Notes under the pieces: generated by a model | The model's input: the letters and a program-made list of their open reading frames with translations, nothing else | Databases searched by the model: none | What the model was told of the DNA's origin: nothing | NCBI GenBank assembly: GCA_030615175.1 | Contig: JAUWZX010000005.1 | Coordinates: 1 to 41,811, forward strand | Length of the DNA stretch: 41,811 bases | Origin: Candidatus Parvarchaeota archaeon | Lineage (GTDB): Archaea; Nanobdellota; Nanobdellia; WJKC01 | Direction: 5' to 3' | Shown here: positions 11,742 to 36,874 of the stretch, piece after piece | Numbering within the stretch: the first letter of the stretch is position 1 | How the letters are laid out: every line of letters begins with the position of its first letter | Translations under genes and position numbers: made by a program

Positions 11742-14700
11742 TTAACACACCCAAGACCCAGCAACAAATGCACAGCATTGCCCATCATGGCATACCTTAC
11801 CAGTATCACAAACAGTAGTATCATCTGCTATAGGTATATTACTACAGCTAGCAGCAGTACATGAATCAGTAGAACATATCACACCATCATCACAGGACTG
11901 CGTTGAGTAACTGCAAGCACTTCCTACAACAGGGCAGGAACCACTATAATAACGAGTTAAGCTAACACAATAAGAAGCACAATCACCAGCAACACAACAG
12001 GACGCGGTAGTGCCAAGACAAGAAACATCGCATACGCCGATTGCAGTGCAAACCTTACCAACAGCACAGGTCATGCCAAGACAATCAGCATCATCGCAGT
12101 CAAACAGGGAATCACCATCATTATCAACGAAATCACTGCAATCAATCTCCACCTTATCAAGCATATAGCACTTCCAGCCATCAACAGAATAACCATCACA
12201 ATAATCGTCAGCGCAGTCAATAAAGGTATCACAATCATCATCAACACCATTAACGCAGTTCTCAGAAGCAGGCGACAGCCAATCAACAAGAGAGAAATCA
12301 TCAATCAAAATCTTATCATAATAATCACTAATGAAAACACGCAACTTATAATCAGACTCAGGAGTCAATACCTCAACACAATTACTGATTAACTGAACAC
12401 CAGGCACAAGAGAAGGCATGACTTCAAAACTACTGCTGCAAACAACACTGCCATCAGAATCAAGGATTTGATAACCAGTCACTTCATCATACAAACCATT
12501 AAAATCATAAGGATAATACACTTCATTAGGCGAAGCAAACAAACTATACATACTGCCATCAACAGGAGGGCTGCCATCAGCCTGCTGAGGGCACGCTAAT
12601 AACTCAAACTTACCAGCAGGAGAAGTATTATCCAACCTGATGTCAGCCCTGCCGGCAAGCGCTACAACAGAATTAAAAGAATAACAATTCTCATACTCAA
12701 TAACCCCGGCACGCGTGCAGATATCAAAAGAATAAGGACGCGGAAAACCATGATTACAGTCAGGCAAATGACAAAAGACTTCCTGAGAAATAAAATCCTT
12801 CTTCAATATTGGAAGCCCAATGCCGTCAGGCCCGGCAGTATTAGTACAGTAAACAGGCATGTCATCAATCCTGACAGTGAAATTAAAGTAATCATAAGGC
12901 TCGAAACGCAGCTCCCTCTGATTAAAGGAAACGTTAAACCAGTAATCCTCACCACAAAACAAAACCTTGCCAAACTGCGACTCATCATGAGCAGGGCTAA
13001 TCTCATCATAAAACTCATTAACCTTCAATGACTCGGAAGGCACAATCAAATCAGGAAATAACTGGTCAAGAACGGTGACAGGATTCACATCACCATACTC
13101 AAAACGCACAAGAGGAGCAGCACTGCTAAAATCCAAACCATCACACGCATAAGGAACAGTGAAGCCTGAAATCCTATTAATAACGCCGCTATTTATGAAT
13201 AAAATACTTGAATGATTGGAAAAAAAGTTAAAACCAGAAGGAGACAACCCTAACTCAGTGAAACGGAAATCACTATTAACTAACTCAGCAAAAAAGAACT
13301 TACCAGTATCATTACTGAACACGAAATCAGCCACTCCATTAAGGTTTAAGTCACCGGCAGCAAGAAAGCTGACTCCAGTCTCAGGAGAAGCATTAGTGAT
13401 ATCCAAAGGAATGAATCCTAAACGCCCATAATTACGGTAAACCCCTAATGACTCCTCGCCAGTCAAGCCAATAATATCAGAATCACCGTCACCATCATAA
13501 TCCAAAACTAAAAAATCACTAGCAGCGAAAACAGACTTCTCAGGGTAAACGAGCTCAGGAATTAAATCATAATCAAGCATGAACACCCCCTCACCCTCAA
13601 CGCCGTAAAATAATTCACCAGAACCGCCTAACGCGAGCATGGTCACCTCACCACTCGTAGGAATAACAATCTTGCCACCTAAACGAGGAGACTGATGCTC
13701 AAAAATAGTGACTCCTGACTCATTACCAGCAATTAATTCATCACCACTAGAATCCTCAACCAAGTCAGCGCCAAGAATAAAATCATAAGAATTAATCTCA
13801 GGAGGAATGTAAAACGCGCCCTTAGTGCTTAAATTAAGGAATTCAACATCAAAAGCACTAATCGAGTAAAGACCAACACCGTCAAGCACTACCAAATAAT
13901 CATCAACACCTGCAATGCCTGAAATACCAGAAGCAATCACGCCCGAAGCATCAAACTCACTGCCATCAACGAACACGGAATCACCTGAAACGTAAAAGAA
14001 TTCACCATCAAAACCTTCAATGCTCAAGAAATTAAATAAATCAGCATTAATGCCCGCTGACTCCTCTGCAGGACTGAATTCATCAAAAGAGCATGAAACA
14101 TCATTAACCAAGTAATAATAATTACTCGTCTGATAATCATTATCCACATCAACACTAATGTGAACATCACCATCAGGAATAAAGGAAAATTCATACCAGT
14201 CATTAGCAAGGTCATAACCAAGCTCTAAAGGATTAAAAACGAATTCATGCCATGAAATAATGTCATCACAAACAATAACACCCAAATCAACTCCTTCAAG
14301 ACTAACGCTTAAATCCACACTACCTGAATCAGTAAAGCATTCAGTCATTATTTGAGCAAACCCATAATCCTCACGAGTCACGTTCTCACCAACATTAAAA
14401 CTAATTGAAAAAACATCACCCGCCCCAAGCAGTAAATTAGACTCTGCCTGCCCGTCATCATCCCTGAACTGCGCTCCACGGCCAAAAGTGCTCAAGTAAA
14501 CAGGCACCACATTATCCTCATTGTAAGCATAAATAGTCAAGTCAACAAGCGTCTTAAGATCATACTTAACCCTTGACAAACGATTACTGTAAAAACTGCA
14601 GAACTCTCCTTCACCAGAATCACTGCACCACACATCCTCATTAATTAAGTTAGACCCGCGATTAACGCCTAAACTAAGACCATAACGACTTAATGAATAA

Positions 14701-16466
14701 TTAAGAGCCCCGCCCCAATAACACTCACCGTCATTAAGAGGGAATAAGCGGTCGCAGCGGTCATGATGCCTTAACTCAAGATTATAAGTAGTGAAATAAC
14801 CCGTATCCACCTCCTCATCAGTCCAGTTCATTGCAAGAAACAAAGTCTTATTAGGAAGAGGGCACTCGCAGTCAGGGGCGCGGGAGGGGATATGAAACTC
14901 ATCAATCACTAAACTATCATTACATAATTCAGGAGGCACGAAATCCATTGCAGCCTCCTGCGCACCGCAAGAACATGAATCAATAAGCGTTCTTGAAGGA
15001 GGAGTTAACTTTGAAATATTCTGCACTCCAAAATTAAGCTTTGAAGGAATAACCTGCAGGACTAATTCAGAAATACATGTAGGGCACGGAATCTTCAGTA
15101 TAGCCCCCTTCTCAGGGTCGCATACCCAGTTATCACCAAACATGAAGTCACGCTCAACATTGCACCCGTTCACGCCGCAGCGCTCCTCACTCACATCCTC
15201 CTGATAATAACAAAGAGAATAATAACCCGCATTAACAACTAAGCCTGGAGGAGGACAGTACTCCCTAACGCCAGCCCATCCGCCGTAATCACGAGGCAGC
15301 CAAGTGCAATGATAATAGAAATCATAATCCTCCTCCATTAACCGCCTATACTTAAAATCCTCACACTGCCCCTGCTCACAGTACTCCTCAATGCAGTCAA
15401 CGCATGAAATCTTATTAATACAGTAATCCCCTTCACTGACAACGCCGTAGCAGTCAAGTTCCTCCACGCAATCACCAGCTTCATCATACTTAATGCATTC
15501 ACCGCACACGCGGTCCACAACGCTGCCGTCATCATTCAATATCTTAAGTAAATCAGTGCTCTCAGTGAACCCCCAGTTAGAAGGGTTATCCCACCCCCTT
15601 ACAGTGCCAAGGCATTCAATACGGTAATAACAGGAATTAAAATTAACATCATCAGTAAAATCATTGCTTAAATAAGAATTTTTACCCACACCACTATCAT
15701 TAATCTTGTTCTGAAGAGCCTGCCCGTCAAGTGCAATATTATCCGTCCCTAAAATCGTTCTTGCTGGCTGCACTCCATCAAGAATCTCGCTTATCAGGTG
15801 CTCATCATAACCGCAATACTTGCATGGCTCACCGCAAAGAGGCAAATCCCTGCACGCATAAACTCCAGTTTCTCCATTACAATACACATTACTTCCAGGA
15901 TACTTGCTTTCGCATTGAGTAAGATTACAGCACTCATAAGGAGTCCAATTACAATTAGTCACACGGTTATCACAACCACCCTGATTCCAATTCCAATAAT
16001 CACATGCCCATGGAGTTTCACTGCAATCAGCCTCATACCAATTACAACCACCATACGCGTCAATTCCCTTACAATCAGACTCTCCGCTAATACCAGAGCA
16101 ACGGTAAGTGCCGCCCCTGCAACATTTATATAATACACACGAACCCCAATAGCATTGACCATCAGTTTGCCTGCAGTCACTTTTACCTAAGTAACCACAC
16201 TCAGCCTTTGTCGTGGGACCGCAATGCCCTATAGCCCAGCTACAGCCCAAGTGAGCGCACTCATCTTCATAATTCAGAGTCTGAGACGGGTCTGTATCAT
16301 CCCATACATCACAACTGTAAGAACTGCCTGAACAATAACCACAATTATAAGAAGTCTTACCACAGCCAGCACCGCAAAGGTCAGGAGAGTCAGGGCAATC
16401 ACAGGCAGCGAAAGCAGTGCTGATAAAGAATACTGTTACCATAATTAATAATAAGTAAGCCCTCAT
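11742..16466 (-). CDS. Large secreted Cys-rich adhesin-like protein with FG-GAP/VCBS-like and Ca-binding DxDxD repeats
   Basis: Signal peptide STAFA|A; N-terminal Cys/Trp repeats; LDYDGDGDSDII, GDLNLNGVADFV; ENCVNGVDDDCDTFIDCAD and DCSDFVDNDGDSLFDCDDADC; SCDDGVICSTDSC. Confidence 0.8.
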   Translation of the reverse strand: MRAYLLLIMVTVFFISTAFAACDCPDSPDLCGAGCGKTSYNCGYCSGSSYSCDVWDDTDPSQTLNYEDECAHLGCSWAIGHCGPTTKAECGYLGKSDCRQTDGQCYWGSCVLYKCCRGGTYRCSGISGESDCKGIDAYGGCNWYEADCSETPWACDYWNWNQGGCDNRVTNCNWTPYECCNLTQCESKYPGSNVYCNGETGVYACRDLPLCGEPCKYCGYDEHLISEILDGVQPARTILGTDNIALDGQALQNKINDSGVGKNSYLSNDFTDDVNFNSCYYRIECLGTVRGWDNPSNWGFTESTDLLKILNDDGSVVDRVCGECIKYDEAGDCVEELDCYGVVSEGDYCINKISCVDCIEEYCEQGQCEDFKYRRLMEEDYDFYYHCTWLPRDYGGWAGVREYCPPPGLVVNAGYYSLCYYQEDVSEERCGVNGCNVERDFMFGDNWVCDPEKGAILKIPCPTCISELVLQVIPSKLNFGVQNISKLTPPSRTLIDSCSCGAQEAAMDFVPPELCNDSLVIDEFHIPSRAPDCECPLPNKTLFLAMNWTDEEVDTGYFTTYNLELRHHDRCDRLFPLNDGECYWGGALNYSLSRYGLSLGVNRGSNLINEDVWCSDSGEGEFCSFYSNRLSRVKYDLKTLVDLTIYAYNEDNVVPVYLSTFGRGAQFRDDDGQAESNLLLGAGDVFSISFNVGENVTREDYGFAQIMTECFTDSGSVDLSVSLEGVDLGVIVCDDIISWHEFVFNPLELGYDLANDWYEFSFIPDGDVHISVDVDNDYQTSNYYYLVNDVSCSFDEFSPAEESAGINADLFNFLSIEGFDGEFFYVSGDSVFVDGSEFDASGVIASGISGIAGVDDYLVVLDGVGLYSISAFDVEFLNLSTKGAFYIPPEINSYDFILGADLVEDSSGDELIAGNESGVTIFEHQSPRLGGKIVIPTSGEVTMLALGGSGELFYGVEGEGVFMLDYDLIPELVYPEKSVFAASDFLVLDYDGDGDSDIIGLTGEESLGVYRNYGRLGFIPLDITNASPETGVSFLAAGDLNLNGVADFVFSNDTGKFFFAELVNSDFRFTELGLSPSGFNFFSNHSSILFINSGVINRISGFTVPYACDGLDFSSAAPLVRFEYGDVNPVTVLDQLFPDLIVPSESLKVNEFYDEISPAHDESQFGKVLFCGEDYWFNVSFNQRELRFEPYDYFNFTVRIDDMPVYCTNTAGPDGIGLPILKKDFISQEVFCHLPDCNHGFPRPYSFDICTRAGVIEYENCYSFNSVVALAGRADIRLDNTSPAGKFELLACPQQADGSPPVDGSMYSLFASPNEVYYPYDFNGLYDEVTGYQILDSDGSVVCSSSFEVMPSLVPGVQLISNCVEVLTPESDYKLRVFISDYYDKILIDDFSLVDWLSPASENCVNGVDDDCDTFIDCADDYCDGYSVDGWKCYMLDKVEIDCSDFVDNDGDSLFDCDDADCLGMTCAVGKVCTAIGVCDVSCLGTTASCCVAGDCASYCVSLTRYYSGSCPVVGSACSYSTQSCDDGVICSTDSCTAASCSNIPIADDTTVCDTGKVCHDGQCCAFVAGSWVC

Positions 16467-16948
16467 ACTGACACCCCTGAACCGCGCAAATTAAAACTTA
16501 ATTCAACCACTCCAGTATCCTCAATCCCGTGAAGAGGGAACCTGCAGACAGTAAATCCTTCGCTAAAAGCGCCGGCAGTCTCCTCAACATCACCAACAGT
16601 AACCCTGAAACCCATCCTGCCAGCAAGCAAAGGAAAAAGTTCATACGACTTATCACTCAAGTACTGGGCAGTAGGGTAAGTTCTCGCCTCACTAATCCCT
16701 AACTGAGAAAATAATAAGTCAACAGCGCCTAAACGCTCCTCAACCAGGACTTTAATATACTCATTACCAACCATTAACGGCAGAGTCGTTGAACAAGTAT
16801 ACTTAAAATTATTATCCTGAATCTGAATCACGCCGGCAAGAAAAAAGTTATTAACGTAAAAAGACTGCAATAATAAAATGATTACTGTAACAAGTATTAT
16901 GAATATTATCTCAAATATCAAACCCTCCATTGCACCCTTACGACTCAA
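16463..16948 (-). CDS. Pilin-like protein, class III signal peptide
   Basis: TTG start gives (M)SRKG|AMEGLIFEIIFIILVTVIILLL. Confidence 0.75.
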   Translation of the reverse strand: MSRKGAMEGLIFEIIFIILVTVIILLLQSFYVNNFFLAGVIQIQDNNFKYTCSTTLPLMVGNEYIKVLVEERLGAVDLLFSQLGISEARTYPTAQYLSDKSYELFPLLAGRMGFRVTVGDVEETAGAFSEGFTVCRFPLHGIEDTGVVELSFNLRGSGVSV

Positions 16949-16949
16949 T

Positions 16950-17528
16950 TCACAACACCCTCGCCTTAAATAATTCAGCTGAAGCACTGATTAATATTTC
17001 AACATAACCATAAGAGAATCTGTTATCATAAATAATTTTCACTGGCAGCACAACGTTCACATCAGTATTAGGATTAAAGAAGTAATCAAAATGCAGGTAA
17101 GAAGCGTAACCCTCATCATCACCTAACAAGTAATGAGCACCTGACTCATCATAAACCTTAACTCCTATGAAAACATAATACTCCTTTGTGTGCAACTGCG
17201 TGCACGCTTTCAGGCGTTCAACGCTTAACTTATTAGCATCAATTGAGTTAGGAAGAGTTATTTTATCAATAAAGTTATAATCAACACTTCCCTGCTGAAG
17301 CACATCATAAAAAACGCCTTTCTTAACATAAGCAAAGCAATTCTCACTATTAATTAACCGGTTAGCAATTAATAATGCCTCAGTAGTCCAGTCAGCCCTG
17401 CCAGTAGTTATTAAAGAACGGTCAACACTGTCAATAATTAAAACTGCAATAACTGAAGTTGACATGACCATGGCTATTGAAACGAATAATAATACTATTG
17501 TTGACGCGGCAGCCCTCCTATTCAACAC
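16950..17528 (-). CDS. Pilin-like protein, class III signal peptide
   Basis: NRRA|AASTIVLLFVSIAMVM; RLINSENCFAY motif. Confidence 0.75.
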   Translation of the reverse strand: MLNRRAAASTIVLLFVSIAMVMSTSVIAVLIIDSVDRSLITTGRADWTTEALLIANRLINSENCFAYVKKGVFYDVLQQGSVDYNFIDKITLPNSIDANKLSVERLKACTQLHTKEYYVFIGVKVYDESGAHYLLGDDEGYASYLHFDYFFNPNTDVNVVLPVKIIYDNRFSYGYVEILISASAELFKARVL

Positions 17529-19413
17529 GCTTATAACCTCCTAAACCAAAGTCATTATATAATGTCACATTGCCCATGCTTAAATCAATCCTGTAACCTT
17601 TAACCCCTTCTGGTGATGCATTATACATGGATAACTTGCAGTTCAACAAGTAATCAAGACCCATACCCTCACTTAATGATTCAAAAGCATTGCCCTTAAA
17701 AGAAGACATGTGACCAGTCACCATTCCCTGAATCCTCACACCCTCGCACCCGTCAAAATCATTGCCTTCATAAGGACCGCCATAAATGACATTGAAATTA
17801 TACTCCTGCTCTGTAGGGAATTCCTGCCTGAAAAGAGAGCTGAACAATGAACTGTCCTTATCATAAAAAGTAACATTCAATCCATCAGGAAAAGGAATCA
17901 TCCTGGTCAAGCCTTCCATATCGCATGGACGGTCATCACTATCAGCGGTTACTATGAACCCAACACTGCTGTCCTCTGCACAGTAAAAAGTAATCATGCA
18001 GTCCTTAGAAAAACCAGGACCCCACAAAACACTGTCAAAAGGAAAATAATTAATCTCCTGGCAGGCAGGACTAATACAGTAACCTCCCCTCTGCGTGTAA
18101 TAATCCATGTAAACACTTGCTTCAGTAAGATGATAATAATCACAGTCATCCCCCACGCCAGGATAGCATAATTCATAATCAGTCTCCAATTCTAACGTAA
18201 TATCAATATCTGTTTCAGGATAAAAACTATTATACAATAATAAGAATGAATTAATATTAGTGTCATTTACTTGTCCAGTACATGACTCTTCAACGCACAT
18301 GCCTCCAATCATGAATTCATAATCAGCACAGCATGACTCATTACTTTCCTCATCACATTCAAGTTTTGAAATATCCTTTAAATCATAACAAACATCCCTA
18401 ACCCATCCATCAGCAGGGCAGGCATCGCTTGATAAACTATGAATCCCGGGGCAGTACTCCTCGCATAAAACGGTTTCTGAACGCTTAATTATCCTGTAAC
18501 CAGAAGGCAGTATAACCGTGAAGTTCTCACTTAAGTCATTCCAGTAAGGAATTTCATCATAAAGAACATCACCCCATCCATTATCACATGACTTAAATAA
18601 CTCGGATAACAAGCCGCCCAGCCCCTCCCTTAAACTGTCCTTGAAATCAGCGGTTGAAACATGATTCCAGTAAGTTGATGCATAAAAAGTCAGGTTGCCT
18701 TCATATAAATTAAAAGTGTTAGGCATAACGCTTTTAGGCACTACTAGCGCCCTCCTCACTGCCTCAAAATCATTAAGGTCCAAGTAAAGTTCAGAAAAAG
18801 CCTCATAATCACTAGCCCCTCTGTAAAAACTGCCCTTGCCAAGCACAAGCACAGGATTCCAGTAAAAATCATTCTCAGGGTGAGGCCTGAAAGTGAATTT
18901 AACTCCATAAGAACCAGGCGAACCATTGTCCGGGTTGCGGTAAATCATTACCGGCTCTATCCTCTTAATCCACATTCCGTCGCAGACAAGCCCGCGCTCA
19001 TTAGCAGTTACTTCAGTAATGACCTGATTACTCTCCCTCTTAGGCCTGCCATCAGCGTGATAATTATCGCAGTCGCAGTAAACCATTAATAAAGGAATAA
19101 CAGGGTATAACTGCACTGTCAAAGGGTCAAACGCGACCCCGCAGTCAAGGCATTTATCCGTGATGCAGCTGCCTGGCAGCCCGGTACTGACATCAGTGAC
19201 TCCGGAAGGCATGGCGTATAATGAATTCTGAACTAATGAGATAAGATTGCCTGTTAACTTAATGCCAATAACAATGCTGATTTGCTCCTGAATAAAACTA
19301 CTAATCCCTGTCAGTATGAACATTGGACCAATAACAGCGATTATTATTATCGCAATCTGAACTATTAAAAAAGTTCCAGACCCCTGCGCCTTAATCGAAA
19401 GCAGGATAAACAC
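17518..19413 (-). CDS. Large Cys-rich pilin-like protein
   Basis: IKA|QGSGTFLIVQIAIIIIAVI followed by an acidic Cys-rich ectodomain; start codon uncertain. Confidence 0.7.
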   Translation of the reverse strand: MFILLSIKAQGSGTFLIVQIAIIIIAVIGPMFILTGISSFIQEQISIVIGIKLTGNLISLVQNSLYAMPSGVTDVSTGLPGSCITDKCLDCGVAFDPLTVQLYPVIPLLMVYCDCDNYHADGRPKRESNQVITEVTANERGLVCDGMWIKRIEPVMIYRNPDNGSPGSYGVKFTFRPHPENDFYWNPVLVLGKGSFYRGASDYEAFSELYLDLNDFEAVRRALVVPKSVMPNTFNLYEGNLTFYASTYWNHVSTADFKDSLREGLGGLLSELFKSCDNGWGDVLYDEIPYWNDLSENFTVILPSGYRIIKRSETVLCEEYCPGIHSLSSDACPADGWVRDVCYDLKDISKLECDEESNESCCADYEFMIGGMCVEESCTGQVNDTNINSFLLLYNSFYPETDIDITLELETDYELCYPGVGDDCDYYHLTEASVYMDYYTQRGGYCISPACQEINYFPFDSVLWGPGFSKDCMITFYCAEDSSVGFIVTADSDDRPCDMEGLTRMIPFPDGLNVTFYDKDSSLFSSLFRQEFPTEQEYNFNVIYGGPYEGNDFDGCEGVRIQGMVTGHMSSFKGNAFESLSEGMGLDYLLNCKLSMYNASPEGVKGYRIDLSMGNVTLYNDFGLGGYKRVE

Positions 19414-25152: not shown

Positions 25153-25368
25153 TCACGCACCATCCTCGCCTGACTGCCAGCCAGGAAGAGTTTCCAATGC
25201 TGATGAAATATTAATTCCTTCAGTAACAGTCTTGCTCGTGCCTGAGATTATACCCCCCTGCTCTGATAACCCTGCAAAGAAGAACACTGCAACAGCAACT
25301 ACTACTAAGACAACTAAAATTATTACCCCAATCATTTGTATGGGCATGCCCTGTGCTTTCCTGCTCAT
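25153..25368 (-). CDS. Small type IV pilin
   Basis: MSRKA|QGMPIQMIGVIILVVLVVVAV. Confidence 0.85.
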   Translation of the reverse strand: MSRKAQGMPIQMIGVIILVVLVVVAVAVFFFAGLSEQGGIISGTSKTVTEGINISSALETLPGWQSGEDGA

Positions 25369-25713: not shown

Positions 25714-25731
25714 GCGAAACCAAATGTTTTT

Positions 25732-26064: not shown

Positions 26065-26441
26065 AAATCATCAACTGCTATGGAAACTCTTCAATTCCGC
26101 ATGTTGCGCCACCACTTAAGGTTACTGTACACGTTCCAAAACTTGGCGCGCAATCCATGGCATATACACAGGCTTTAGTTGTGCTTTTTAATCCACTACT
26201 ACCAGAGCCTGGGCACGCACTAGAGCTAACAGGTTTTGTGCCATATGCACCGCAGTCATTGTAATTATAAGCCATTGTCGTTAATGCCTGGCAGTCTGAC
26301 TGACAGCTTGCCTGAGTTGCATTAACTACTTGCATGCTAGCACCTGCTGAACCGAATCCTGAAATAAAGAATGCTCCGACCACTACAAGAACTAATAAAG
26401 CCAAGGCAGTCAGGACAATCATGTTAACAGGCAATCCTTGT
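25921..26441. repeat. 133-bp near-identical direct repeat (25921-26053 and 26309-26441) encoding the pilin N-terminal helices
   Basis: Manual alignment: 2 mismatches, with a 115-bp perfect stretch. Confidence 0.95.
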
Positions 26442-26452
26442 CCAATCCTCAT
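26078..26452 (-). CDS. Type IV pilin (candidate major pilin, 124 aa)
   Basis: MRIG|QGLPVNMIVL...; start 26452 fits the class III leader and the upstream TATA box. Confidence 0.9.
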   Translation of the reverse strand: MRIGQGLPVNMIVLTALALLVLVVVGAFFISGFGSAGASMQVVNATQASCQSDCQALTTMAYNYNDCGAYGTKPVSSSACPGSGSSGLKSTTKACVYAMDCAPSFGTCTVTLSGGATCGIEEFP

Positions 26453-26476
26453 TAGAATAAAATTAGGGCTTGCACG

Positions 26477-26490
26477 TTTATAAATTTTCC
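26477..26490 (-). promoter_or_regulatory. BRE-TATA internal promoter for the pilin genes
   Basis: Minus strand GGAAAATTTATAAA ending about 25 nt before ATG 26452. Confidence 0.6.
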
Positions 26491-28175: not shown

Positions 28176-28180
28176 TTCTT

Positions 28181-30178
28181 TTAAACACCACACTCATTCA
28201 CAACATCCGCTATGAACCCTTCCTTATCATCAGGGTTATCAAGGAATTCAGCGCATGCATTTACTAAATCACTTAATGAGGCATCACTCCACTCATTACC
28301 GCAGGCGACTCCAGCATAACTCTCATGAGTCACTTCATTTACATCAAACTGCGTCTTGCACTCTGTTAATAAATAATCATCATCCAAATTATTAAATGAC
28401 TTAATCAGGCGATACCTGCAGTACGGCTCCACGCTCCTGTGATACTGGTTAATGTTAAAGATTGAACCCTGAATATCAATGATGTACGTGCCTCCGTAAA
28501 ATTCAGGCGCTGACTCCAGATAATCACAAGGATTATACGAACCATACGCTCCTAATGGTTCAACAGTTACTTCATTATTAGTAATGCAGTTTATTTCTTC
28601 ACTATAATAACCGCACTGCTCCACTAACTCCATGCAAGGGCATGGAAGACTGCAAGCGCCTAACTCAAGTGAAACCGTAATTGGTGGTGGAACAATGCCT
28701 GATGAACTGTCAGGAATTCCTAAAGTCCTGAATGCTGCGTACTCCATTATTGCAAGGTCCGCGCAAGTTCCTCTCTTTTGAATCATGGTTTCCCATGCGG
28801 GCTGGCAGTCAGGGTCAGCGTCCCCTCCGCCACTAACCGCCCCGTACTTCTCAAATTCATAATTGCATGCATCATAAGGGCCATTATAACAAGTAAGATT
28901 AACTAAATCCATGCCAGTCCTTGGCATTAAAGTATAATTTACCGGGTCGAAACGTTCTTTTAAACTTCTTAAGTCAAGGCAGTTAATGTAACCGTAATTC
29001 TTTAAGCCAGGATTATTAAGGCAGAAACTATGCATGTTATAACCACCAATTAATCCTAAACTCTGAATCTCCACCTCATCATTGCAGTCACCTTTAAAGC
29101 AGTTATGCAGAAATTCCACTGCATCATCATAGTAATTAAGGAATGACACTGCAGTAGTCTCTTCATAAACAATGTCAGGACAGTTAAAGCATAATTGAGG
29201 CACTGAATACGCATCCAAAAACTTCGGGGCCCGCACAACCAGAGTCTTATAAGATGCTTCTGTTAAATCATAAAGGTATACTTCCTCTATTAATTCATAA
29301 TCCATAACAACCCAGCCAAGGTAATTATAATATGATAACTCAGAACTTTGTGAAACAACAAAAGGATGATTAAAGACTTCTCCTTCAATTGTCTTGCTTA
29401 TAATATCATCAATCACTTCTATGTGATTTGCTTCACAGCCATCATTCACTCCATCAACATCACTGCAATCCAGATTATTTTCGTCAAGGTAATTAATTAC
29501 TTCCTGATTTAACTTAAACACCAAATTATCAGATATTGCAGTCCTAATAGTTTCCGTAATATAATCATACTTGTACTTGCCGTACTCTAATGCCATCTGG
29601 ACAAAGTCAAGTAATTGATAATTGCACGAGAAATATAATGGCAGTCGTTCAATAACTGAGAAGTCAAGTCCTTCCTTTTTCTCGCAAAAACCCTTAACTT
29701 TATTGCACTTGAAAAGGCATAACTCTAATTCACTGCTAGAGCACGCCTCGCATTCATCAGGCAAGTCAAATAATCCATTATTATAATCTTCACAGCAGTT
29801 ACAGCACTCCTTGCATGAATCATCTGGTTCATCACAAACGCAGGCGCCGCAAGTGCAGGAACCACTAATTAAGTACTTCTCGCACTCAGGCGGCGGGCAG
29901 TTAGACTTGCAGTAAGCCGTACAGCACTCATCATCATCAATACATAACGTATCAGATATTCCATAATTCATTACCGCCACTTCCTCATCACTTAAGTCAG
30001 AGAGGCAGAAGTAAGCGCACGGAATCTCAAAATAAGAGATGTCAGGAATGAACACACTGATTGTGTCAAGAACATCCTCAGTCATCGGTGCAGTGAAATT
30101 AGAAACCGCTGTTGCCACGATAATAATTACTATAAGTACTATAATCAGTTTTAATATTGAAGCTGTAGCAAACCTCAA
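28181..30178 (-). CDS. Pilin-like membrane-anchored protein with transglutaminase-like Cys motif (paralog of 26490-28175)
   Basis: N-terminal TM; PAWETMIQKRGTCADLAIMEYAAFRTLGIP; shared CxLPCPC and PEFxG blocks. Confidence 0.75.
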   Translation of the reverse strand: MRFATASILKLIIVLIVIIIVATAVSNFTAPMTEDVLDTISVFIPDISYFEIPCAYFCLSDLSDEEVAVMNYGISDTLCIDDDECCTAYCKSNCPPPECEKYLISGSCTCGACVCDEPDDSCKECCNCCEDYNNGLFDLPDECEACSSSELELCLFKCNKVKGFCEKKEGLDFSVIERLPLYFSCNYQLLDFVQMALEYGKYKYDYITETIRTAISDNLVFKLNQEVINYLDENNLDCSDVDGVNDGCEANHIEVIDDIISKTIEGEVFNHPFVVSQSSELSYYNYLGWVVMDYELIEEVYLYDLTEASYKTLVVRAPKFLDAYSVPQLCFNCPDIVYEETTAVSFLNYYDDAVEFLHNCFKGDCNDEVEIQSLGLIGGYNMHSFCLNNPGLKNYGYINCLDLRSLKERFDPVNYTLMPRTGMDLVNLTCYNGPYDACNYEFEKYGAVSGGGDADPDCQPAWETMIQKRGTCADLAIMEYAAFRTLGIPDSSSGIVPPPITVSLELGACSLPCPCMELVEQCGYYSEEINCITNNEVTVEPLGAYGSYNPCDYLESAPEFYGGTYIIDIQGSIFNINQYHRSVEPYCRYRLIKSFNNLDDDYLLTECKTQFDVNEVTHESYAGVACGNEWSDASLSDLVNACAEFLDNPDDKEGFIADVVNECGV

Positions 30179-30181: not shown

Positions 30182-30313
30182 CTAAAACCTCAATACGTTA
30201 ATTGATTCATTAACTCCTGATTCCAGATAACCAGCTATTGTTATTGCTAATAATATTAAAATCAATAACACAATAACTGTTATTACTGCAATTGCAATCG
30301 TCTTAAATTCCAT
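30182..30313 (-). CDS. Small pilin-like protein (43 aa), not in ORF track
   Basis: MEFKTIAIAVITVIVLLILILLAITIAGYLESGVNESINVLRF*. Confidence 0.7.
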   Translation of the reverse strand: MEFKTIAIAVITVIVLLILILLAITIAGYLESGVNESINVLRF

Positions 30314-31180
30314 TTAAGTAACCACCGCCGTTGATACATCATAAGTGCAAAGTATTAACTGGTCAGCAGAAGCGGAAGCAGAGACAGTGTAGCACAGCGT
30401 CTCAGTAGACGTCTTGACTCTTGAAATTGCCTGGAAGAACTGGTCAATATAGTATAATCCTACCACGTACTTCCGCTTTTTCCCGTCACAAATCATATTA
30501 TAACCAAGAATCCCTCTGAACCCGAGAAAAGGATTCTCAGCGCCTAATAAGTCAGAATACCTTTTCTGAATATCACCAATGCTATAAAAATGAGTGTCAG
30601 CATACCTGTTAAGGAATACCTGGTCAATGATTATTGAACCACCAGACTCTGTTAGTGAATCATAAATATCCTCATACTCTTCATACATATTCTTAATCCA
30701 CTGAGGGTAAACGCCATCACTTAATGAATCACACTTTAAGTCAATTGTTTGCTCAAAACAAGTGAATTGATTGCCTCCCTCGTACATCACTAACGGGTCC
30801 CACCGGCCCTCCCCGAACACATCCCAGCACCTGATGGATTCATCCATTACTTTCCTGGTCAGAACGTCAAGCGTGACGTAATCAGTGTAATCAACTGCGG
30901 GTCCAGGATAACAGGCAAGAGGGACAGACATTAAACTAACTGCTGCACCGCCAAACCCTCCAGTAAGTGTTCCAACAGCACCTAAAAGCGTCTCAACCAC
31001 GGGGTTGCCGAGCGTGGCAGCCCTGAAGAACACGTTAATCTTGCAGATTGAGTCAGAAAGCCCTCCAGTAATTATTGGATAAAAAGAGAACACGAGTGAC
31101 AAGACGATGAACGCGACTACTGCAAATAATATTACCATCACTATTGAATTAAATCCTAATTCAGTGCCTCTTCGATTCAT
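30314..31180 (-). CDS. Pilin-like protein, class III signal peptide
   Basis: MNRRG|TELGFNSIVMVILFAVV; ICK...VPLAC...RCWDVFGEG motif; Gly-rich segment LGAVGTLTGGFGGAA. Confidence 0.8.
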   Translation of the reverse strand: MNRRGTELGFNSIVMVILFAVVAFIVLSLVFSFYPIITGGLSDSICKINVFFRAATLGNPVVETLLGAVGTLTGGFGGAAVSLMSVPLACYPGPAVDYTDYVTLDVLTRKVMDESIRCWDVFGEGRWDPLVMYEGGNQFTCFEQTIDLKCDSLSDGVYPQWIKNMYEEYEDIYDSLTESGGSIIIDQVFLNRYADTHFYSIGDIQKRYSDLLGAENPFLGFRGILGYNMICDGKKRKYVVGLYYIDQFFQAISRVKTSTETLCYTVSASASADQLILCTYDVSTAVVT

Positions 31181-31332
31181 CCAATAACACTCCTCTTGCC
31201 GAAAATACTGCCTGCTTCAACAGCAGGATTAACTATTAAAATGAATAGTAAAGTAAGTATTATTATAATTACTACTGCAAGTATTGCAATAACTATCTCC
31301 TTAAAACCTAACTCAATTGCTCCAAGCCTCAC
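31177..31332 (-). CDS. Small pilin (51 aa), not in ORF track
   Basis: GTG start: MRLG|AIELGFKEIVIAILAVVIIIILTLLFILIV...; ATGA overlap with the next gene. Confidence 0.75.
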   Translation of the reverse strand: MRLGAIELGFKEIVIAILAVVIIIILTLLFILIVNPAVEAGSIFGKRSVIG

Positions 31333-31365
31333 TATTAATAATTAACTAGCTCTTCAAATAAATAA

Positions 31366-31503
31366 TTATATGATAAAAGGAATGTTTATTTGAGAACCTG
31401 CCTGGTAAGTAAAAGTAAGGATGAATATTAAAATAATAATGAATATTGCTATGACTACGAGTAATAATCCTAATACTGAACCCCATTTAATGTCAAGCAC
31501 CAT
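31366..31503 (-). CDS. Small pilin-like TM protein (45 aa), not in ORF track
   Basis: MVLDIKWGSVLGLLLVVIAIFIIILIFILTFTYQAGSQINIPFII*. Confidence 0.65.
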   Translation of the reverse strand: MVLDIKWGSVLGLLLVVIAIFIIILIFILTFTYQAGSQINIPFII

Positions 31504-31506: not shown

Positions 31507-33612
31507 TTAACCAAACACTAATCCTGCCTCCACAGCAACTCTTGCAATGCCAGTGAACACGGTAGTGACGGCGAAAGTCACTATTACATAAATGATTAAA
31601 CCAATTGGAAGCATTCTTGAAATAAGGTCAAATTTGAATAAAGGGTCGCCTGCTAACTCTATATCACCATCAATCATTGATAATAAAATGATTATTTCAA
31701 CAACGTAAATGCCAACAACTGGCTGGAAAATAAATAATGGGATTGCTTTACTAACCTGGAATATCCCAAGAATCCATGTGCCAGCACCCATGCCAAAAGC
31801 CGCTCCTCCTTCATCAGCCATCATGCCCACAACCTGCGTGCCTAATATGTCAAGGATTATTAATATCATGGCTGTTAATCCAACAACGAGTCCTGAAATT
31901 ACTGGCGCTAAAAAACTTGACTGGAACTTCATGCTTGAAAGAGTTTCAGACAATATATCCCTGACTTTTTCATCAATCCTGTGAATATCCCTTAAGTAAT
32001 TACTCATGTTAACAAGACTTATTGCTGCAACGTCAAGGCTTTTCTTAGCACTCATGACTGCAACGTTTAAAATACTCTTAACAATTGCTGAAGGATAAAA
32101 ACGAATCGCGCCAATCTTAGGGTCAAAGATTGCTGATTCAACATCCATTCCTAATTCATTAATATTCTTGCTTATCTCGCCGAACAACCTGGAAGTTGCT
32201 GACTCACCCATAATACTGGCAACCTTTGTAAGAGCTATTTCTAAAGGGTAACCTTCACCAAGCCTGTTACCTAACTGGAAGGTTGCGTCAGCGAACTCGC
32301 GCTCAATCTCCTGCAACTCCTTTCTAATCTTCATCCTTGAAGTAGCAAGTAATTTGCCGTAAATAATCATTGCAGCAGCCGGCGCTGCAACAATTAACAG
32401 TGTTGCGTAAATATCCATTTCCTGAGGCTTTATTGAAGCATACATTGGAAAGTAAAAGAACATTGGGAGCAGTAATAAGAACGCGACTATTGCTGCAGGA
32501 ATCCATGCTGAGTAAGCCTTCCTGCCTTCCCCTTTACCCATGAAGAACTTGCCTTTCGGCGGCACGTCAGGATGAATACTGATATCCGGTATCGGGAAGC
32601 CTGCAGGCCTCTTAGCCAGCGAGTACTTGGCGAACACGAAAACAGCTATTGGCAGTATAACATCATAAAGCACTATTAATGCTAATGGATTAACAATATC
32701 ACTTAGGAAAGCACCCATTATAGGGAACATGACTAATCCAAGAACTGGAAGCATTATGCCCATCATGTAAAGCATGTTGATAGGAGTCCTTAAAGCATTA
32801 GCGTACCTAATCATCTGCTCATAAGTCCCTTCAAGAGATAAATCTAATGATTTATTAAGCATCCTAATCCTTGCATCCTCACTCCCCTGGTAAAGACTTG
32901 CTTCAATTAAGTGCACTGCGTCAACAAATACTGGCGAAGTTTCCTTCCAGTTCAACACATAACTATCCAATGCTTCCTTCATGCTTGCATACTTGCGTGA
33001 CTGAACATCCCATAATAACTTCTTAAAGTCATTGCCCAGCGCTGTCTCCAAGTTATCAGCAACGAATTTAACAGCTGCCTCTAAATTACTCGTTGTGCGC
33101 ATGAAGATAACCATGTAAAGTATTGACAGTATTAATTCTGAAGAGGCGCGGGCTCTTCTAATATCAAGCATCCTGTCAGGGTAATTTGTTATGTACATGA
33201 ACGCGCCGAACCCTGCCACTGCCAGCAATAGTCCTCCAGGACCAACGAATAAGAATGCAATAACACCCATTATTAGGAAAAGTATTATTGCCATTATGCC
33301 AAGCGAATAAATATCCGCTGGCTCAACATCTAGTCCAAGCAATCTTATCTTTACTTCTAATTTATCCTTTGTCTTCTGGTCAAGAGCGAATTTAATGCCA
33401 AGACTTCTTGACCATTTAGCGAGTTTCTCAAACCATTCTCCTCCTGCCGTTTTTTCTTTTTCAAAAATCTTAAACTCCCTTGAACGCGCAATTATTTCCT
33501 TTTTCTGCGCTTCTATGCCTGCACCGGTTTCAGGCTTCTTCTCCTTAACTCTATCCTTTAAGTATTTCTCCTTTAACTCCCTCTCTATCTGCGCTTTAGT
33601 TTTCTTTGCCAC
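31507..33612 (-). CDS. TadC/GspF-like type IV pilus platform membrane protein with two cytoplasmic domains
   Basis: Polytopic 701-aa protein; MRTTSNLEAAVKF and QLGNRLGEGYPLEIAL domains; overlaps the ATPase gene. Confidence 0.88.
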   Translation of the reverse strand: MAKKTKAQIERELKEKYLKDRVKEKKPETGAGIEAQKKEIIARSREFKIFEKEKTAGGEWFEKLAKWSRSLGIKFALDQKTKDKLEVKIRLLGLDVEPADIYSLGIMAIILFLIMGVIAFLFVGPGGLLLAVAGFGAFMYITNYPDRMLDIRRARASSELILSILYMVIFMRTTSNLEAAVKFVADNLETALGNDFKKLLWDVQSRKYASMKEALDSYVLNWKETSPVFVDAVHLIEASLYQGSEDARIRMLNKSLDLSLEGTYEQMIRYANALRTPINMLYMMGIMLPVLGLVMFPIMGAFLSDIVNPLALIVLYDVILPIAVFVFAKYSLAKRPAGFPIPDISIHPDVPPKGKFFMGKGEGRKAYSAWIPAAIVAFLLLLPMFFYFPMYASIKPQEMDIYATLLIVAAPAAAMIIYGKLLATSRMKIRKELQEIEREFADATFQLGNRLGEGYPLEIALTKVASIMGESATSRLFGEISKNINELGMDVESAIFDPKIGAIRFYPSAIVKSILNVAVMSAKKSLDVAAISLVNMSNYLRDIHRIDEKVRDILSETLSSMKFQSSFLAPVISGLVVGLTAMILIILDILGTQVVGMMADEGGAAFGMGAGTWILGIFQVSKAIPLFIFQPVVGIYVVEIIILLSMIDGDIELAGDPLFKFDLISRMLPIGLIIYVIVTFAVTTVFTGIARVAVEAGLVFG

Positions 33613-36600
33613 TTAAATCCATCTCCTTCCTGAACACCTTAACCTTTTCTTTAAGCCATGCCTCATATAATCTTAGAACATCCTTTGTTTCAGGGTAGCC
33701 CATCTCGCTTGATAACCTGTCAAATATTTTATGGAAAGCATCATTTGCTTCAACCATGAAGTCAGCCTCGTACAACTCCATCACTCCTGACTTCTCAGCG
33801 TAATCCTTAATTAATTCCTTTGTCCTAGTCCTTAAATTAATGTTCTCCCAGACAGCATCCCAGTTACCAGCCCATTCCCTGACCCTGCCGGCAATGCTTT
33901 TCAGCACTTCACTCTCGCCTTCAAGCAAGTCCCTCGTAGGCACTAATTTATTTGATTTAGAGTCATAAGTCATTAGAGTTACGAAACCATGCTCCCTTAC
34001 AGGATCCTCCTCCCAGTCTTTCCTTATTTCTGTTATATCAACTAATTTCCTGACTTCCCTTAAACCTGAAGGGTCTCTTATCTTGTTTGCAATCATTATT
34101 ATATCAGTTGCCTTAAAACTAGTTCTTGGAACTTCCAAGTCATTAACAACTCTGTCAAACACTCCGTAAGCACTGTCACCGTGAATAGTTCCTGCAACAA
34201 CGTTTGCCAGGGCGCCGACCCTCATTGCCTCATATAATGCTTTTGCTTCAGTGGACCTAATTTCACCCATTATCAGGCTTGAATCGCCAAGACGCAGTGA
34301 AGTCCTTATGCCGTCAGCTGCTGATAACTCACTTTTGCTTCCAACAATAGCGCTTCTAACCTTCATTGATACAATGTTGTAACCAATATTGCGCATGTAA
34401 TTAATAGGTAATTCAAGAGTGTCTTCTATAACGATTATCCTGTAACGCCTCATTATCTCTATAAGTAAGGATTGCAGTAATGAAGTGTTATGCACTACAA
34501 TATTATTTGCTATGAAATTATGCGTGCCTTCAACCTCTAAGTCATAAACGTAACCTTCATCATTAATTACTCTATCAACACTGACTACTTCATCAAAGAA
34601 TACTTCCGAGCCTGCTAGTATCCTAAGGTTTTCAATAATAGTTTTAAATCTTGATAATTCATTTGATTTGAGACTATTTAATTCAATAATTCTCCTTTCA
34701 AAAGTATTAAGTATTTCTTTTAATTTTTTCTTGCTTGGATTACATATTCCTTCAAAATCACCCTTCAAGTTCTTCATGAATAATCCTTTATATAATTCTT
34801 TTAAGGGCTTGCTGATATTAGGGATTACTTTAACATTCTTCACTTCATGACTGAAACCTGTTTTTTCATAGTAATTCCTTAATGAATCATCACTATTAGT
34901 GAACATTAATTTGCTTTTATTAACGTGGCTATCACTAATGAAGTCCATAAACTCAGGCATCTTAACAGGCCGGGACAAGTGTACTTTTAATAAAGTATTT
35001 TTATTAATACAAGCATAATTAAACCCTGATTTCTCATTAGTAACAGCATTAATTAATTTCATCCTGCGCTTGTATTTCTCAAGCAAGTTTAAAGGAGTTC
35101 TTAATATTTCAGGAACAGTTATGAAATCCTTTTTCTTTATTTGCTCTGCAAAAACTTCAGTTAACACTCCATTTTTTATGGTATAAAACGGGTGTTCAGG
35201 CGTGACTCTCACTTTCCTTCCTGAACGAGTCATAACTTCAATAACATCTGTTAAATATTTTCTTTTATAAACTGCTTTTACTTCCTTTTCTTCAAAACAC
35301 AAGTTCCCAGTATTCATTGTTAAAACTTTTATTGGTTTCTCAGGGACTCCTATAAAACCATCATCTGTTCTTTCACTATTAATTAATAACACGTTATCCA
35401 CCAGTTCTTTTATTGGCTTAAGTGAACCGCCAGCAAGCTGCACTAATGAATCCCCTGTCAAGCACTTCCCTGAACCTCTGGTGCCTGCCACAAGCATTGG
35501 ACGCGCGCCGTCAATCAGGAAACTAATTAAGCCAGCTGATAAAGGCGTTATCATCCCAACCTTCATGAATAACGGCAGAGTCCAGGGCCTTTCCCTGTGC
35601 CTCCTGAAAGTGAATGCCAGACCTGTAGGGCTTAAAGGCTTCTGTATTACTGCAACCCTTGCCCTGGCTTTTTTAGTTTCTAATTCAGTGTCAAGGACTG
35701 GATTAGCCTCGTCTAAAGCTCTTCCAGAAAGCATTCTGAACCTTGAAGCCCAGGCTTTTGCCTCCTTAATATTTGGATAAATATTTGTCTCGCACTCTCC
35801 GTGAATCGAGTGCTTGAAGATTATTGGCGTACTGCCTACAGGCGCGTTAACGTAAATATCTTCCACTTTTTCATCCTCTAATAACACTTCTATTAAACCG
35901 AAGCCGACTGTAAGCCTCATTAATATTCTTGCAAGTTTTTCAATTTTCTTATAGGACATCTTTATTTCATTATTGCGCGCTAACTCCTCAACCAAGTCCT
36001 TACCGATATTAAAGAATACTTCCCTCATACGCGTAGGGTTTACGAATTCCTCCCTTCTGGGCTTGAATTTAACCATTATCTGTCTTGCCTCGTCAAGTAA
36101 TGTATAATCATTCTCGTCAAGTTTAAATTCCGGCGGCACTATGTGATACACATACCTTATCTTATCAGGTAATTCGTATACGACTACATCATTCTCCCCC
36201 ACCCTATACGAGTCAATCTCCTCAGCCCTCATCGGCGGCTCTGATATCAGTCTCGTGTACATGAAGTTAGGTTTGATTATTGGCTCAAAAACCACTGTGT
36301 ATAATTCCCTGTCACCTACTTTATAGCCTGGAAGTTTATCCTTAATCAATCTTATTATTTTTAATCCTGCAATATCCTTCACAATGTCTTCAATTATTGC
36401 TGCATACTCAGTTACGCATTTCCTCTCACTCTCACCTTCAGTTATCTTAAGCCTTGACCTTATCGTCCTATAATGCCTTAAAGCAATTAAGTAAGCGCCT
36501 ATTGGGTCGCTTTTCAGGGTGTTAATTATTTCTCTTACCTTCACAACGTAGTCAGGAATTACTTTTCTGCACTTCTCGCTTATTAATTCTATTGACAGCA

Positions 36601-36874
36601 CTTTCTTTTCCTTAACCAGTTTAATGAATAGTGATGCAAGTTCATTCATTAATTTAGCCTGCGTTAAAGGGTAAATATAATTCCTCTCAGCCTCGAATAT
36701 TATTGTCGTTACTGAACCAGTTTCCATTAACTTGTTAACAGTGTCATCCATGCATAAAGGATTGTTCTCAATGCTTGGATAACTAGTAGGGTCTTTCCAC
36801 TTTATTATTAGGTTAACCTCTGTCCCTTCCCTTTCAATTTCATAGTTCTTTTCTTTTTTAGGGTCCTCAGGCAT
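33596..36874 (-). CDS. VirB11/CpaF-family type II/IV secretion (pilus assembly) ATPase with intein
   Basis: Walker A AGTRGSGK|T split by the intein; IEDTLEL Asp box; LRLGDSSLIMGEIR Walker B; GTIHG His box; GGAGGGG SD. Confidence 0.95.
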   Translation of the reverse strand: MPEDPKKEKNYEIEREGTEVNLIIKWKDPTSYPSIENNPLCMDDTVNKLMETGSVTTIIFEAERNYIYPLTQAKLMNELASLFIKLVKEKKVLSIELISEKCRKVIPDYVVKVREIINTLKSDPIGAYLIALRHYRTIRSRLKITEGESERKCVTEYAAIIEDIVKDIAGLKIIRLIKDKLPGYKVGDRELYTVVFEPIIKPNFMYTRLISEPPMRAEEIDSYRVGENDVVVYELPDKIRYVYHIVPPEFKLDENDYTLLDEARQIMVKFKPRREEFVNPTRMREVFFNIGKDLVEELARNNEIKMSYKKIEKLARILMRLTVGFGLIEVLLEDEKVEDIYVNAPVGSTPIIFKHSIHGECETNIYPNIKEAKAWASRFRMLSGRALDEANPVLDTELETKKARARVAVIQKPLSPTGLAFTFRRHRERPWTLPLFMKVGMITPLSAGLISFLIDGARPMLVAGTRGSGKCLTGDSLVQLAGGSLKPIKELVDNVLLINSERTDDGFIGVPEKPIKVLTMNTGNLCFEEKEVKAVYKRKYLTDVIEVMTRSGRKVRVTPEHPFYTIKNGVLTEVFAEQIKKKDFITVPEILRTPLNLLEKYKRRMKLINAVTNEKSGFNYACINKNTLLKVHLSRPVKMPEFMDFISDSHVNKSKLMFTNSDDSLRNYYEKTGFSHEVKNVKVIPNISKPLKELYKGLFMKNLKGDFEGICNPSKKKLKEILNTFERRIIELNSLKSNELSRFKTIIENLRILAGSEVFFDEVVSVDRVINDEGYVYDLEVEGTHNFIANNIVVHNTSLLQSLLIEIMRRYRIIVIEDTLELPINYMRNIGYNIVSMKVRSAIVGSKSELSAADGIRTSLRLGDSSLIMGEIRSTEAKALYEAMRVGALANVVAGTIHGDSAYGVFDRVVNDLEVPRTSFKATDIIMIANKIRDPSGLREVRKLVDITEIRKDWEEDPVREHGFVTLMTYDSKSNKLVPTRDLLEGESEVLKSIAGRVREWAGNWDAVWENINLRTRTKELIKDYAEKSGVMELYEADFMVEANDAFHKIFDRLSSEMGYPETKDVLRLYEAWLKEKVKVFRKEMDLSGKEN
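34487..35464 (-). mobile_element. Intein (326 aa) inserted in the P-loop, with degenerate homing endonuclease
   Basis: Block A CLTGDS, block B VTPEHPF, blocks F/G VYDLEVEGTHNFIANNIVVHN followed by Thr(+1); visibly more AT-rich than the exteins. Confidence 0.95.

Follow-up and report, generated by a model that had tools for sequence, protein, structure and literature searches.

A sixteen-gene pilin-like array behind a CpaF-type ATPase and a TadC-like platform: a candidate host-gripping machine of a host-dependent archaeon

With which genes does a host-dependent archaeon take hold of its host? To date, imaging papers state, in the portions available to us, that the proteins of the DPANN attachment organelle are unknown, and the accessible part of a 2026 survey describes pilins as scattered in Nanobdellati. 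A 41,811-nucleotide stretch of a Candidatus Parvarchaeota genome (hereafter, the window) contains an ordered set of pilin-like genes that raises this question anew. We found no description of a 16-gene array in the literature covered; most subscription journals lie outside that scope, as do the supplements of PMC11291902 (Dataset 13) and PMC13705601 (S4, S5), which may list these genes. In this report, we analyze the locus as a candidate machine with which its owner might grip, and perhaps pierce, its hosts.

The locus occupies the minus strand at 11742..36874 (all features are on this strand unless stated) and contains all that the initial annotation had claimed: an ATPase, a TadC-like platform, exactly 16 co-oriented ORFs that start with a hydrophobic helix, and a 1574-aa Cys-rich secreted protein. 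In array order, the 16 ORFs encode 45, 51, 288, 43, 665, 567, 144, 110, 102, 71, 52, 794, 1044, 631, 192 and 174 aa; internal ATG codons probably start the 144-aa ORF (leaving about 124 aa) and the 567-aa ORF (leaving about 561 aa). Distances between genes range from -38 to +87 nt. Such a helix opens 16/16 array ORFs, compared to 220 of 1033 ORFs genome-wide, and the longest run of helix-bearing ORFs in the genome, 17, is this locus, the second longest being 5. Promoter and terminator scans of the locus, with methods ill-suited to archaea, gave signals at shuffle level only.

Are these ORFs pilins? A [KR]x[GA] leader was recognized by eye in 11 of the 16, the same count of class III-type leaders as first proposed, and by regular expression it is absent from the 45, 43, 665, 567 and 52-aa ORFs. 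A strict FlaFind-like pattern is passed by 2/16; PF04021 matches nothing in the window, and no pilin family model (Pfam, NCBIfam, PF04021) matches any array ORF. Class III signal peptides are a tentative reading of these N-termini. Across related loci, the motif is missing from about a third of array-type ORFs (119/376, a set that includes some Sec-type proteins and neighbours), and genes at the same position carry a leader in one genome and lack it in another. As had been noted, archaellin, FlaH and A24 prepilin peptidase families have no match among the 29 window proteins scanned. A class III signal peptidase (A24, PF01478) is encoded elsewhere in the genome, at C5:149308; in G019 and G034, an A24 peptidase gene lies at the array end, and in L118 near TadC.

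The motor genes are better recognized. The VirB11/CpaF-type secretion ATPase (1092 aa, 33596..36874, PF00437 over cut-off) has a long N-terminus and a 326-aa intein (residues 471-796, 34487..35464; PF14890, TIGR01445, TIGR01443) lodged within Walker A, which is intact around it; the extein counts 766 aa, and the G001 ortholog is a 757-aa protein without intein. Two NCBIfam models, TIGR03819 (E 1e-31) and FlaI (E 7e-26), match below cut-off, and the family profile finds 2oap and CpaF as best PDB matches, CpaF scoring above FlaI. The platform is a single 701-aa multi-TM protein (31507..33612) of TadC/FlaJ-like type, an assignment made via family members: the protein itself has no Pfam match, and 13 of 27 aligned members match PF00482 (best E 8e-7). 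It has a match in 40/41 genomes; used as a lone query against named genomes it gave no result. Upstream of the ATPase, beyond the span first described, lie three membrane-protein genes and a coiled-coil gene. The former (182, 196 and 233 aa, 38079..39900) are multi-TM paralogs (E 1e-12 to 1e-5) with homologues in 49 of 80 ATPase loci, and are probable accessory membrane components. The 224-aa coiled-coil protein (37391..38065, plus strand, divergent from the ATPase) has weak matches to coiled-coil-rich Pfam families only, and homologues in 58/80 loci.

The locus is shared with relatives and is not peculiar to the source genome. In 26 of 35 relatives' genomes, the array comes after TadC (three others are too short and six lack it there), and G001 and G002 keep the gene order 1:1; because of this, the possibility that the large ORFs are not syntenic with the ATPase/TadC pair, raised at the outset, falls away. 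Two of the six genomes without an array at TadC (G017 and G032), as well as G042, have 13-18 pilin-like genes around the gene for the 288-aa family, and G021 keeps a five-gene remnant; G029, a complete 0.6-Mb genome, has a shorter array after TadC. Among Woesearchaeota-labelled loci with full flank, 15/37 have at least five pilin-like ORFs, many ATPase-TadC pairs being without an array, and in an Undinarchaeota-labelled locus the array adjoins the pair.

From the platform onwards, the array begins with two helix-only ORFs (31177..31503), of 45 aa without leader and 51 aa with one; both have orthologs in G001 and occupy the same positions in G002. The 288-aa subunit that follows (30314..31180) belongs to a conserved family, designated C, found in 109 of 121 genomes, yet the ordered 16-subunit array escapes the Pfam and NCBIfam models tried. 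Its AF2 model (pLDDT 81) is pilin-like in shape, with a long N-helix (residues 9-57) and a disulfide-rich head; an uncharged Gly/Ala segment spans residues 65-97. The model has no Foldseek match at E <= 0.001 and no pilin among the VIA matches listed, searches in which the N-helix filled the results and the head was barely probed; a PDB profile search gave one match, 8fk7 (E 0.69), to the N-helix only. A 43-aa ORF without leader (30182..30313) has an in-frame stop directly 5' of its ATG and GGTGG upstream, and its counterparts in G001 and G002 also lack the leader. Three paralogous Cys-rich ORFs of 102 to ~124 aa (25405..26512), tandemly expanded in relatives, are by size and paralogy only the best candidates for major subunits; two of them have a QGLP mature start, and the 110-aa ORF is 76% identical to that of G001. 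Beside them lie a 71-aa ORF with leader and a 52-aa ORF without (24994..25368), the G002 gene in the latter position having one.

Five proteins (665, 567, 794, 1044 and 631 aa) are giants by comparison. The two paralog pairs announced among them are borne out: 665/567 (E 1e-18) and 794/1044 (E 3e-11). Their identity to G001 is 42-50%, versus 84% for TadC, and no internal repeats were found. The 794-aa (22522..24906) and 1044-aa (19391..22525) proteins belong to a family, F, with two conserved Cys motifs that are 78-133 aa apart in three short members, about 335 aa apart in the former and about 760 aa, mostly acidic, in the latter. A profile of 20 short F members from other families matches both (E 1e-8 and 2e-5), and the two are class-wide 200-400-aa subunits enlarged by inserts. 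The net charges of the large heads are -46 and -87. The 1044-aa protein has no Pfam or NCBIfam match, and an ESM Atlas search with the 794-aa protein was without result; the latter has a hydrophobic two-segment stretch at residues about 160-240, also present in G001 and G002. Homology of the F and C families (probability 42%) is unsupported. The 631-aa protein (17518..19413) has a leader and homologues within its own family only; its membership in the family found at the same position elsewhere was rejected, as a profile of those genes gives no match.

The initial annotation envisaged enzymatic or membrane-active modules. The large members are indeed modular and have potentially membrane-active hydrophobic segments; enzymatic cargo is not supported, as the only enzyme-like fold has no conserved catalytic His, and the giants are mostly not enzymes. 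That fold belongs to the E family: a 665-aa N-anchored protein without leader (28181..30178), whose transglutaminase-like core is indicated by PF01841 (E 0.003) and motif alignment, and its likewise leaderless 567-aa (probably 561-aa) paralog (26490..28193), which keeps the Cys. Among 48,161 chains, the top 12 fold matches of the 567/665 core are, judging by their titles, transglutaminase-like, with Z of only 4.7-5.7, rmsd of 4.3-8.9 A and a model pLDDT of 50; the Atlas lead was 0.76, and a Foldseek search at E <= 0.001 found nothing. The family resembles the LapG/BTLCP cysteine proteases (PDB 4fgo; PF06035, PF01841) in its GxCED motif and following helix and perhaps in this fold, and Cys and Asp are invariant in 27/27 rows covering the site. 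It differs from them in having no conserved His, a Cys-Pro-rich motif being found in its place, and in being joined to an N-terminal anchor and encoded within a pilus array. His occurs in at most three rows of any alignment column, and 12 of 26 motif-bearing rows have none within 110 aa after the Cys; one match, P0039 (E 6e-4), has a GxCED-type motif and a downstream His. An active protease role was therefore rejected, as was remote homology with the C family, in which only the TM helix aligns. The G001 ortholog of the 567-aa protein has an extra LamG domain. The E family is lineage-restricted, with members found in four of the 151 genomes of the class and numbering 32 among 1.84 billion representatives, and is so rare that it is not a core part of the machine.

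The array closes with 192-aa and 174-aa ORFs (16463..17528), compact forms of genes with longer counterparts in other lineages; the 192-aa family is recognized by HMM, and the 174-aa family can be followed outside its own family through position and alignment alone. Homology between the two is unsupported beyond the leader. The Sec-type 1574-aa protein (11742..16466; 99 Cys) has acidic disulfide repeats and one FG-GAP repeat (PF13517 over cut-off, NF033662 below), and by analogy would be a putative tip adhesin. In all nine genomes for which we retrieved the end of the locus, the array ends in a large secreted Cys-rich protein; in two of them, it is followed by one or two N-anchored genes. Large proteins of related loci contain LamG, H-lectin, F5/8, PKD, PQQ-propeller or DUF2341 domains; 17 of the 31 scanned have no Pfam match, so that the term 'binding module' applies to a minority.

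Taken together, we give an even chance to a vertically inherited, Tad-like type IV filament machine of Nanoarchaeia whose product would be an adhesive contact filament, variable at its tip. The type IV filament character proposed initially is supported by synteny with ATPase and TadC and by the peptidase in trans. The motor would comprise the ATPase, the platform, the coiled-coil protein and the three membrane proteins; a single A24 peptidase would clip leader-bearing subunits, several others being made already leaderless. Small helix-only and ~110-aa Cys-rich pilins may form the shaft, and the 288, 794, 1044, 631, 192 and 174-aa proteins may assemble into minor-pilin or tip complexes to which, as PilY1 systems suggest, the Sec-secreted adhesin would be attached; this division into major and minor subunits follows size and paralogy only. 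Loop inserts in conserved cores would be fast-changing binding modules for host or surface recognition, such as lectin, PKD, propeller and the catalytically degenerate transglutaminase-like domains.

It is conceivable that the filament goes further and acts as a penetration or translocon device, whose hydrophobic hairpins enter the host membrane so that a feeding bridge opens. Uncharged stretches of at least 25 aa, many of them Gly/Ala-rich, occur in 16/33 C-family proteins of syntenic loci versus 5/35 control N-anchored proteins, and in 36 of 59 further members (32/40 genomes), a set biased by selection as it consists of the top matches of a profile already containing such segments. Comparable segments sit in differing subunits by lineage (the 794-aa protein here, the 192-aa family in G015 and G018), and the available part of a cryo-ET study reports a filament that leaves the Nanobdellota attachment cone and reaches the host membrane, its proteins being unknown to the authors. 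The segments of the 288-aa family and the 794-aa protein suggest membrane insertion and make host penetration plausible; these two, rather than the giants as a group, give the strongest hint. However, when all array proteins are counted, such segments are no more frequent than in controls (24/233 versus 5/67), and by that filter 8 of 20 loci have none; Pfam matches to glycine-zipper or bacteriocin families concern single members, the segments could enter the cell's own membrane instead, G013 has no C-family match, and in the accessible portion of Hamm et al. (PMC11291902) such loci also occur in a species not seen to invade. We hold this reading to be rather unlikely, and are equally tentative about the composite in which the operon encodes the Nanobdellota host-contacting filament, complete with membrane-inserting hairpins, feeding translocon, swappable recognition modules and leaderless subunits.

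The leaderless giants point elsewhere, to a short pseudopilus or membrane-anchored complex, with no long pilus, in which large proteins keep uncleaved N-helices. The 665 and 567-aa proteins have no class III leader (the 794, 1044 and 631-aa proteins do have the motif), 19 of 23 E-family members likewise lack a leader-like motif and four have it, heads of 500-1000 aa seem large for a filament shaft, and the available part of PMC13705601 describes T4F machines that bear class III binding proteins. The many helix-only and ~110-aa tandem-duplicated subunits, however, resemble those of a polymer, and leaders come and go between same-position genes; we consider this reading improbable. A competence-like pilus importing DNA or nucleotides into a biosynthesis-poor organism was weighed as well: DNA uptake is a function of type IV filaments in other prokaryotes, and near-universal retention would fit an essential nutritional role; the strong acidity of the large heads and the lack of any nucleic-acid-binding or channel family among locus proteins (Pfam, NCBIfam) make it less probable still. 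Least credible of all is the view that ordinary membrane-anchored surface proteins lie beside ATPase-TadC by chance: the array-less Woesearchaeota-labelled pairs speak for it, but it is largely refuted by the class-wide synteny, with the Undinarchaeota-labelled locus and the peptidase linkage adding to this.

The adhesive contact filament that we prefer gives proteomics and cryo-ET named targets in existing co-cultures, and its hydrophobic segments and leaderless subunits are peculiarities specific enough to be tested.

How does the locus compare with known systems? Archaellum identity was rejected, PF01917 not being found in the 87%-complete genome while the control was positive in known archaellated genomes. 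The succession of minor-pilin-like genes and then a gene for a large secreted protein, itself with a propeller-type repeat, recalls the PilY1/PilC adhesin tip complexes of bacterial T4P, a likeness of gene layout alone, with no sequence similarity found. Many pilins, some of them headless, and large adhesin-like proteins are shared with bacterial Tad pili and the T4F System 1/Epd pilus of Methanococcus maripaludis, going by the available parts of PMC13705601 and PMC4858521; that pilus has two platform genes, versus one 701-aa gene here, where PF04021 also finds nothing. A separate two-platform locus exists in the source genome (C5:34316-44024), its ATPase far from the window's clade. In the accessible part of Hamm et al. 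2024 (PMC11291902), locus 2 (CCP-CpaF-TadC) is conserved in Nanoarchaeota, Woesearchaeota, Pacearchaeota and Undinarchaeota, filament proteins are named in a figure legend for locus 1 only, and nothing is said of the 16-gene array, the inserts or the terminal secreted protein. A locus 1 counterpart, with PilA-like genes and a chaperonin, lies at C5:312625-325185. By its layout, the 224-aa coiled-coil protein would be the CCP of locus 2, and the motor core of the window matches that locus: a coiled-coil gene, a CpaF-like ATPase and TadC, without PilA or FlaF.

Between 36874 and 11742 on the minus strand, the window carries an ATPase gene, a 701-aa TadC-like membrane protein (the platform), 16 ORFs and a 1574-aa secreted protein, as the initial annotation had described; its claim that each of the 16 ORFs begins with a hydrophobic helix also held (16/16). 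Together with the final 1574-aa gene they form an uninterrupted run of 17, in a genome where 220 of 1033 ORFs start with such a helix and the second-longest run is 5. The loose [KR]x[GA] motif of class III leaders, claimed for 11 ORFs, is present in 11/16 and absent from 5. Strict pilin and leader tests are weak: 2/16 ORFs satisfy a FlaFind-like pattern, and none of the curated pilin families scanned against the array scored above its cut-off.

As a variant of the type IV filament machinery, the locus is real and is conserved throughout its lineage. Synteny of the array with the ATPase/TadC pair, which was to be checked in relatives, was recovered there: gene order matches the window 1:1 in the relatives G001 and G002, and among the 35 of 40 relatives with downstream DNA, which are kin and hence non-independent, a pilin-like array (at least 4 of the first 6 ORFs past TadC) follows TadC in 26, 3 contigs are too short and 6 have no array there. 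A set of 37 named loci with full flank overlaps these 35 relatives and includes an Undinarchaeota-labelled locus; TadC comes next in 32 of the 37, and at least 5 pilin-like ORFs are found in 15. The 288-aa family, a conserved pilin-like subunit, occurs in 109/121 genomes (E <= 0.001). Three genomes (G017, G032 and G042) have 13-18 pilin-like genes around its gene, with TadC not directly before the block, and G021 keeps five genes of the array. In G017 and G042 (stretches L207 and L210), what directly precedes the array is not TadC but a large Cys-rich protein together with four class III-type genes (150-380 aa). In stretches L152-L160, genes read from their sequences as peptidyl-prolyl isomerase, FtsZ and Spt5 lie after the array in 8/9 genomes with a locus end, often with Alba and SecE; these shared neighbours suggest that the array may there occupy a fixed chromosomal site, one not common to the window.

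The named ATPases closest to that of the window carry the labels Parvarchaeota or Nanoarchaeia. A tree built by a quick method, with long outgroup branches, places it among ATPases so labelled and well away from the other two secretion ATPases of the genome. A 326-aa intein (34487-35464) lies within its Walker A; it is not present in the G001 ortholog, and a simple pattern search found no LAGLIDADG-like motif in it. The platform family matches PF00482 via 13/27 aligned members. Upstream, a coiled-coil gene and a trio of paralogous membrane genes have homologues in 58/80 and 49/80 ATPase loci, respectively. The prepilin (A24) peptidase, expected outside the window, was located on contig C5 of the same genome; in G019 and G034 the array itself ends with it. 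C5 also carries two more type IV filament loci: one, at 34316-44024, has two platform genes (System 1-like), and in the other, at 312625-325185, PilA-like genes adjoin genes for a coiled-coil protein and a chaperonin, as in locus 1 of Hamm et al. The one detected A24 peptidase would be common to all three loci. No archaellin was found in this 87%-complete genome.

Some subunits may bypass this peptidase. An in-frame stop lies immediately 5' of the ATG in the 43 and 52-aa ORFs, the G002 gene at the 52-aa position has a leader, and G031 holds paralogs both with and without one. Across 31 loci the motif is missing in 119/376 array-type ORFs, a figure raised by the inclusion of Sec-type proteins, neighbours and leader variants. 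Alternatively, leaderless subunits could be uncleaved membrane anchors. In a G001 paralog of the Cys-rich 110-aa pilin (L031:6445-6867) the N-terminal helix is tandemly duplicated, possibly by assembly artefact.

Of the giant subunits, the 794 and 1044-aa ones are members of a class-wide protein family, mostly 200-400 aa long, and both are matched by a profile made solely from 20 short members that come from other families. Their enlarged size is due mainly to inserts, because two conserved Cys motifs, 78-133 aa apart in three short members, are about 335 and 760 aa apart in them. The 567/665-aa pair is confined to 4/151 genomes and 32 representatives. Its model is of low quality overall (pLDDT 50; core 60-85), and on it the 12 best fold matches (Z 4.7-5.7) are, to judge by their titles, proteins of transglutaminase type. 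The Cys and Asp of a GxCxD motif are invariant (27/27 rows) and the alignment has no conserved His, so that the pair is more probably a pseudo-enzyme than a protease; the enzymatic modules proposed for the giants are thus not borne out by this pair. In G001 the ortholog of the 567-aa protein carries an additional LamG domain. Pfam matches, mostly LamG, H-lectin, F5/8, PKD, propeller, Ig or DUF2341, were obtained for 14 of 31 large proteins of related loci and not for the other 17. A profile search tied the 631-aa protein to no same-position family elsewhere. Identity to G001 is 42-50% for the giants against 84% for the platform, and 16/26 arrays have an N-helix ORF of at least 550 aa within the fetched stretch, some of Sec type.

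The assembly and function that we infer would be as follows: the motor assembles small subunits into the shaft of an adhesive filament, and the larger subunits with the 1574-aa protein form a variable tip recognising a host or surface. We give this reading an even chance. Its main rival, a filament serving penetration, is unlikely, at about half that weight. It draws on the 288-aa family, modelled confidently (pLDDT 81) as a helix spanning residues 9-57 with a compact head: uncharged stretches of at least 25 aa occur in 16/33 members from syntenic loci and in 36/59 further members (top profile hits, biased towards such a stretch; 1/60 was removed for lacking the N-helix), versus 5/35 controls. 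In the window the stretch follows the N-helix; in Woesearchaeota-type members it lies close to the C-terminus. A two-segment hydrophobic stretch with a Cys pair is shared by the 794-aa protein and both of its orthologs. A generic filter, which ignores C-terminal segments, however retained 24/233 array-region proteins (12/20 loci) versus 5/67 controls. Such segments are specific to certain families, and they do not indicate which membrane would be entered. That the subunits form a non-extruded surface complex is improbable, an uptake pilus still more so, and chance clustering of the genes very improbable indeed.

Past the array, window 6774-11688 encodes three proteins: one of 543 aa with two ArsA-like ATPase domains, one of 380 aa (weak nucleotidyltransferase match) and one of 241 aa, the latter two sharing their last seven residues; a similar block lies a few kb past the locus in G002 (L036 5366-8851). 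Positions 4307-6127 encode a secreted, Cys-rich protein of 606 aa that carries a lamin tail domain (PF00932) at its C-terminus, and a low-GC cassette at 633-3788 holds, judging by sequence, a cytosine methyltransferase, a possible restriction endonuclease (315-aa), an HTH regulator and an HhH-type glycosylase.

The array was found nowhere described in the paper texts searched. In the portions available of each source, cone filaments of 6.6-8.2 nm are reported at the attachment site (PMC11420986; 10.64898/2026.06.04.730037), their proteins being stated to be unknown (PMC11420986); pilins are scattered in Nanobdellati (PMC13705601), and PMC13718433 notes pilin genes and adds nothing further. Hamm et al. 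(PMC11291902, and preprint), in the text accessible, describe two conserved DPANN loci that combine CpaF and TadC with a coiled-coil protein, naming filament proteins for locus 1 only; the layout of the window fits their locus 2. System 1, defined in the available part of PMC13705601 by two platform genes, differs from the window locus, which is without the second. The motor is already published; the window adds subunits enlarged by inserts, a pair of degenerate transglutaminase-like proteins, hydrophobic segments specific to particular families, and subunits that have no leader.
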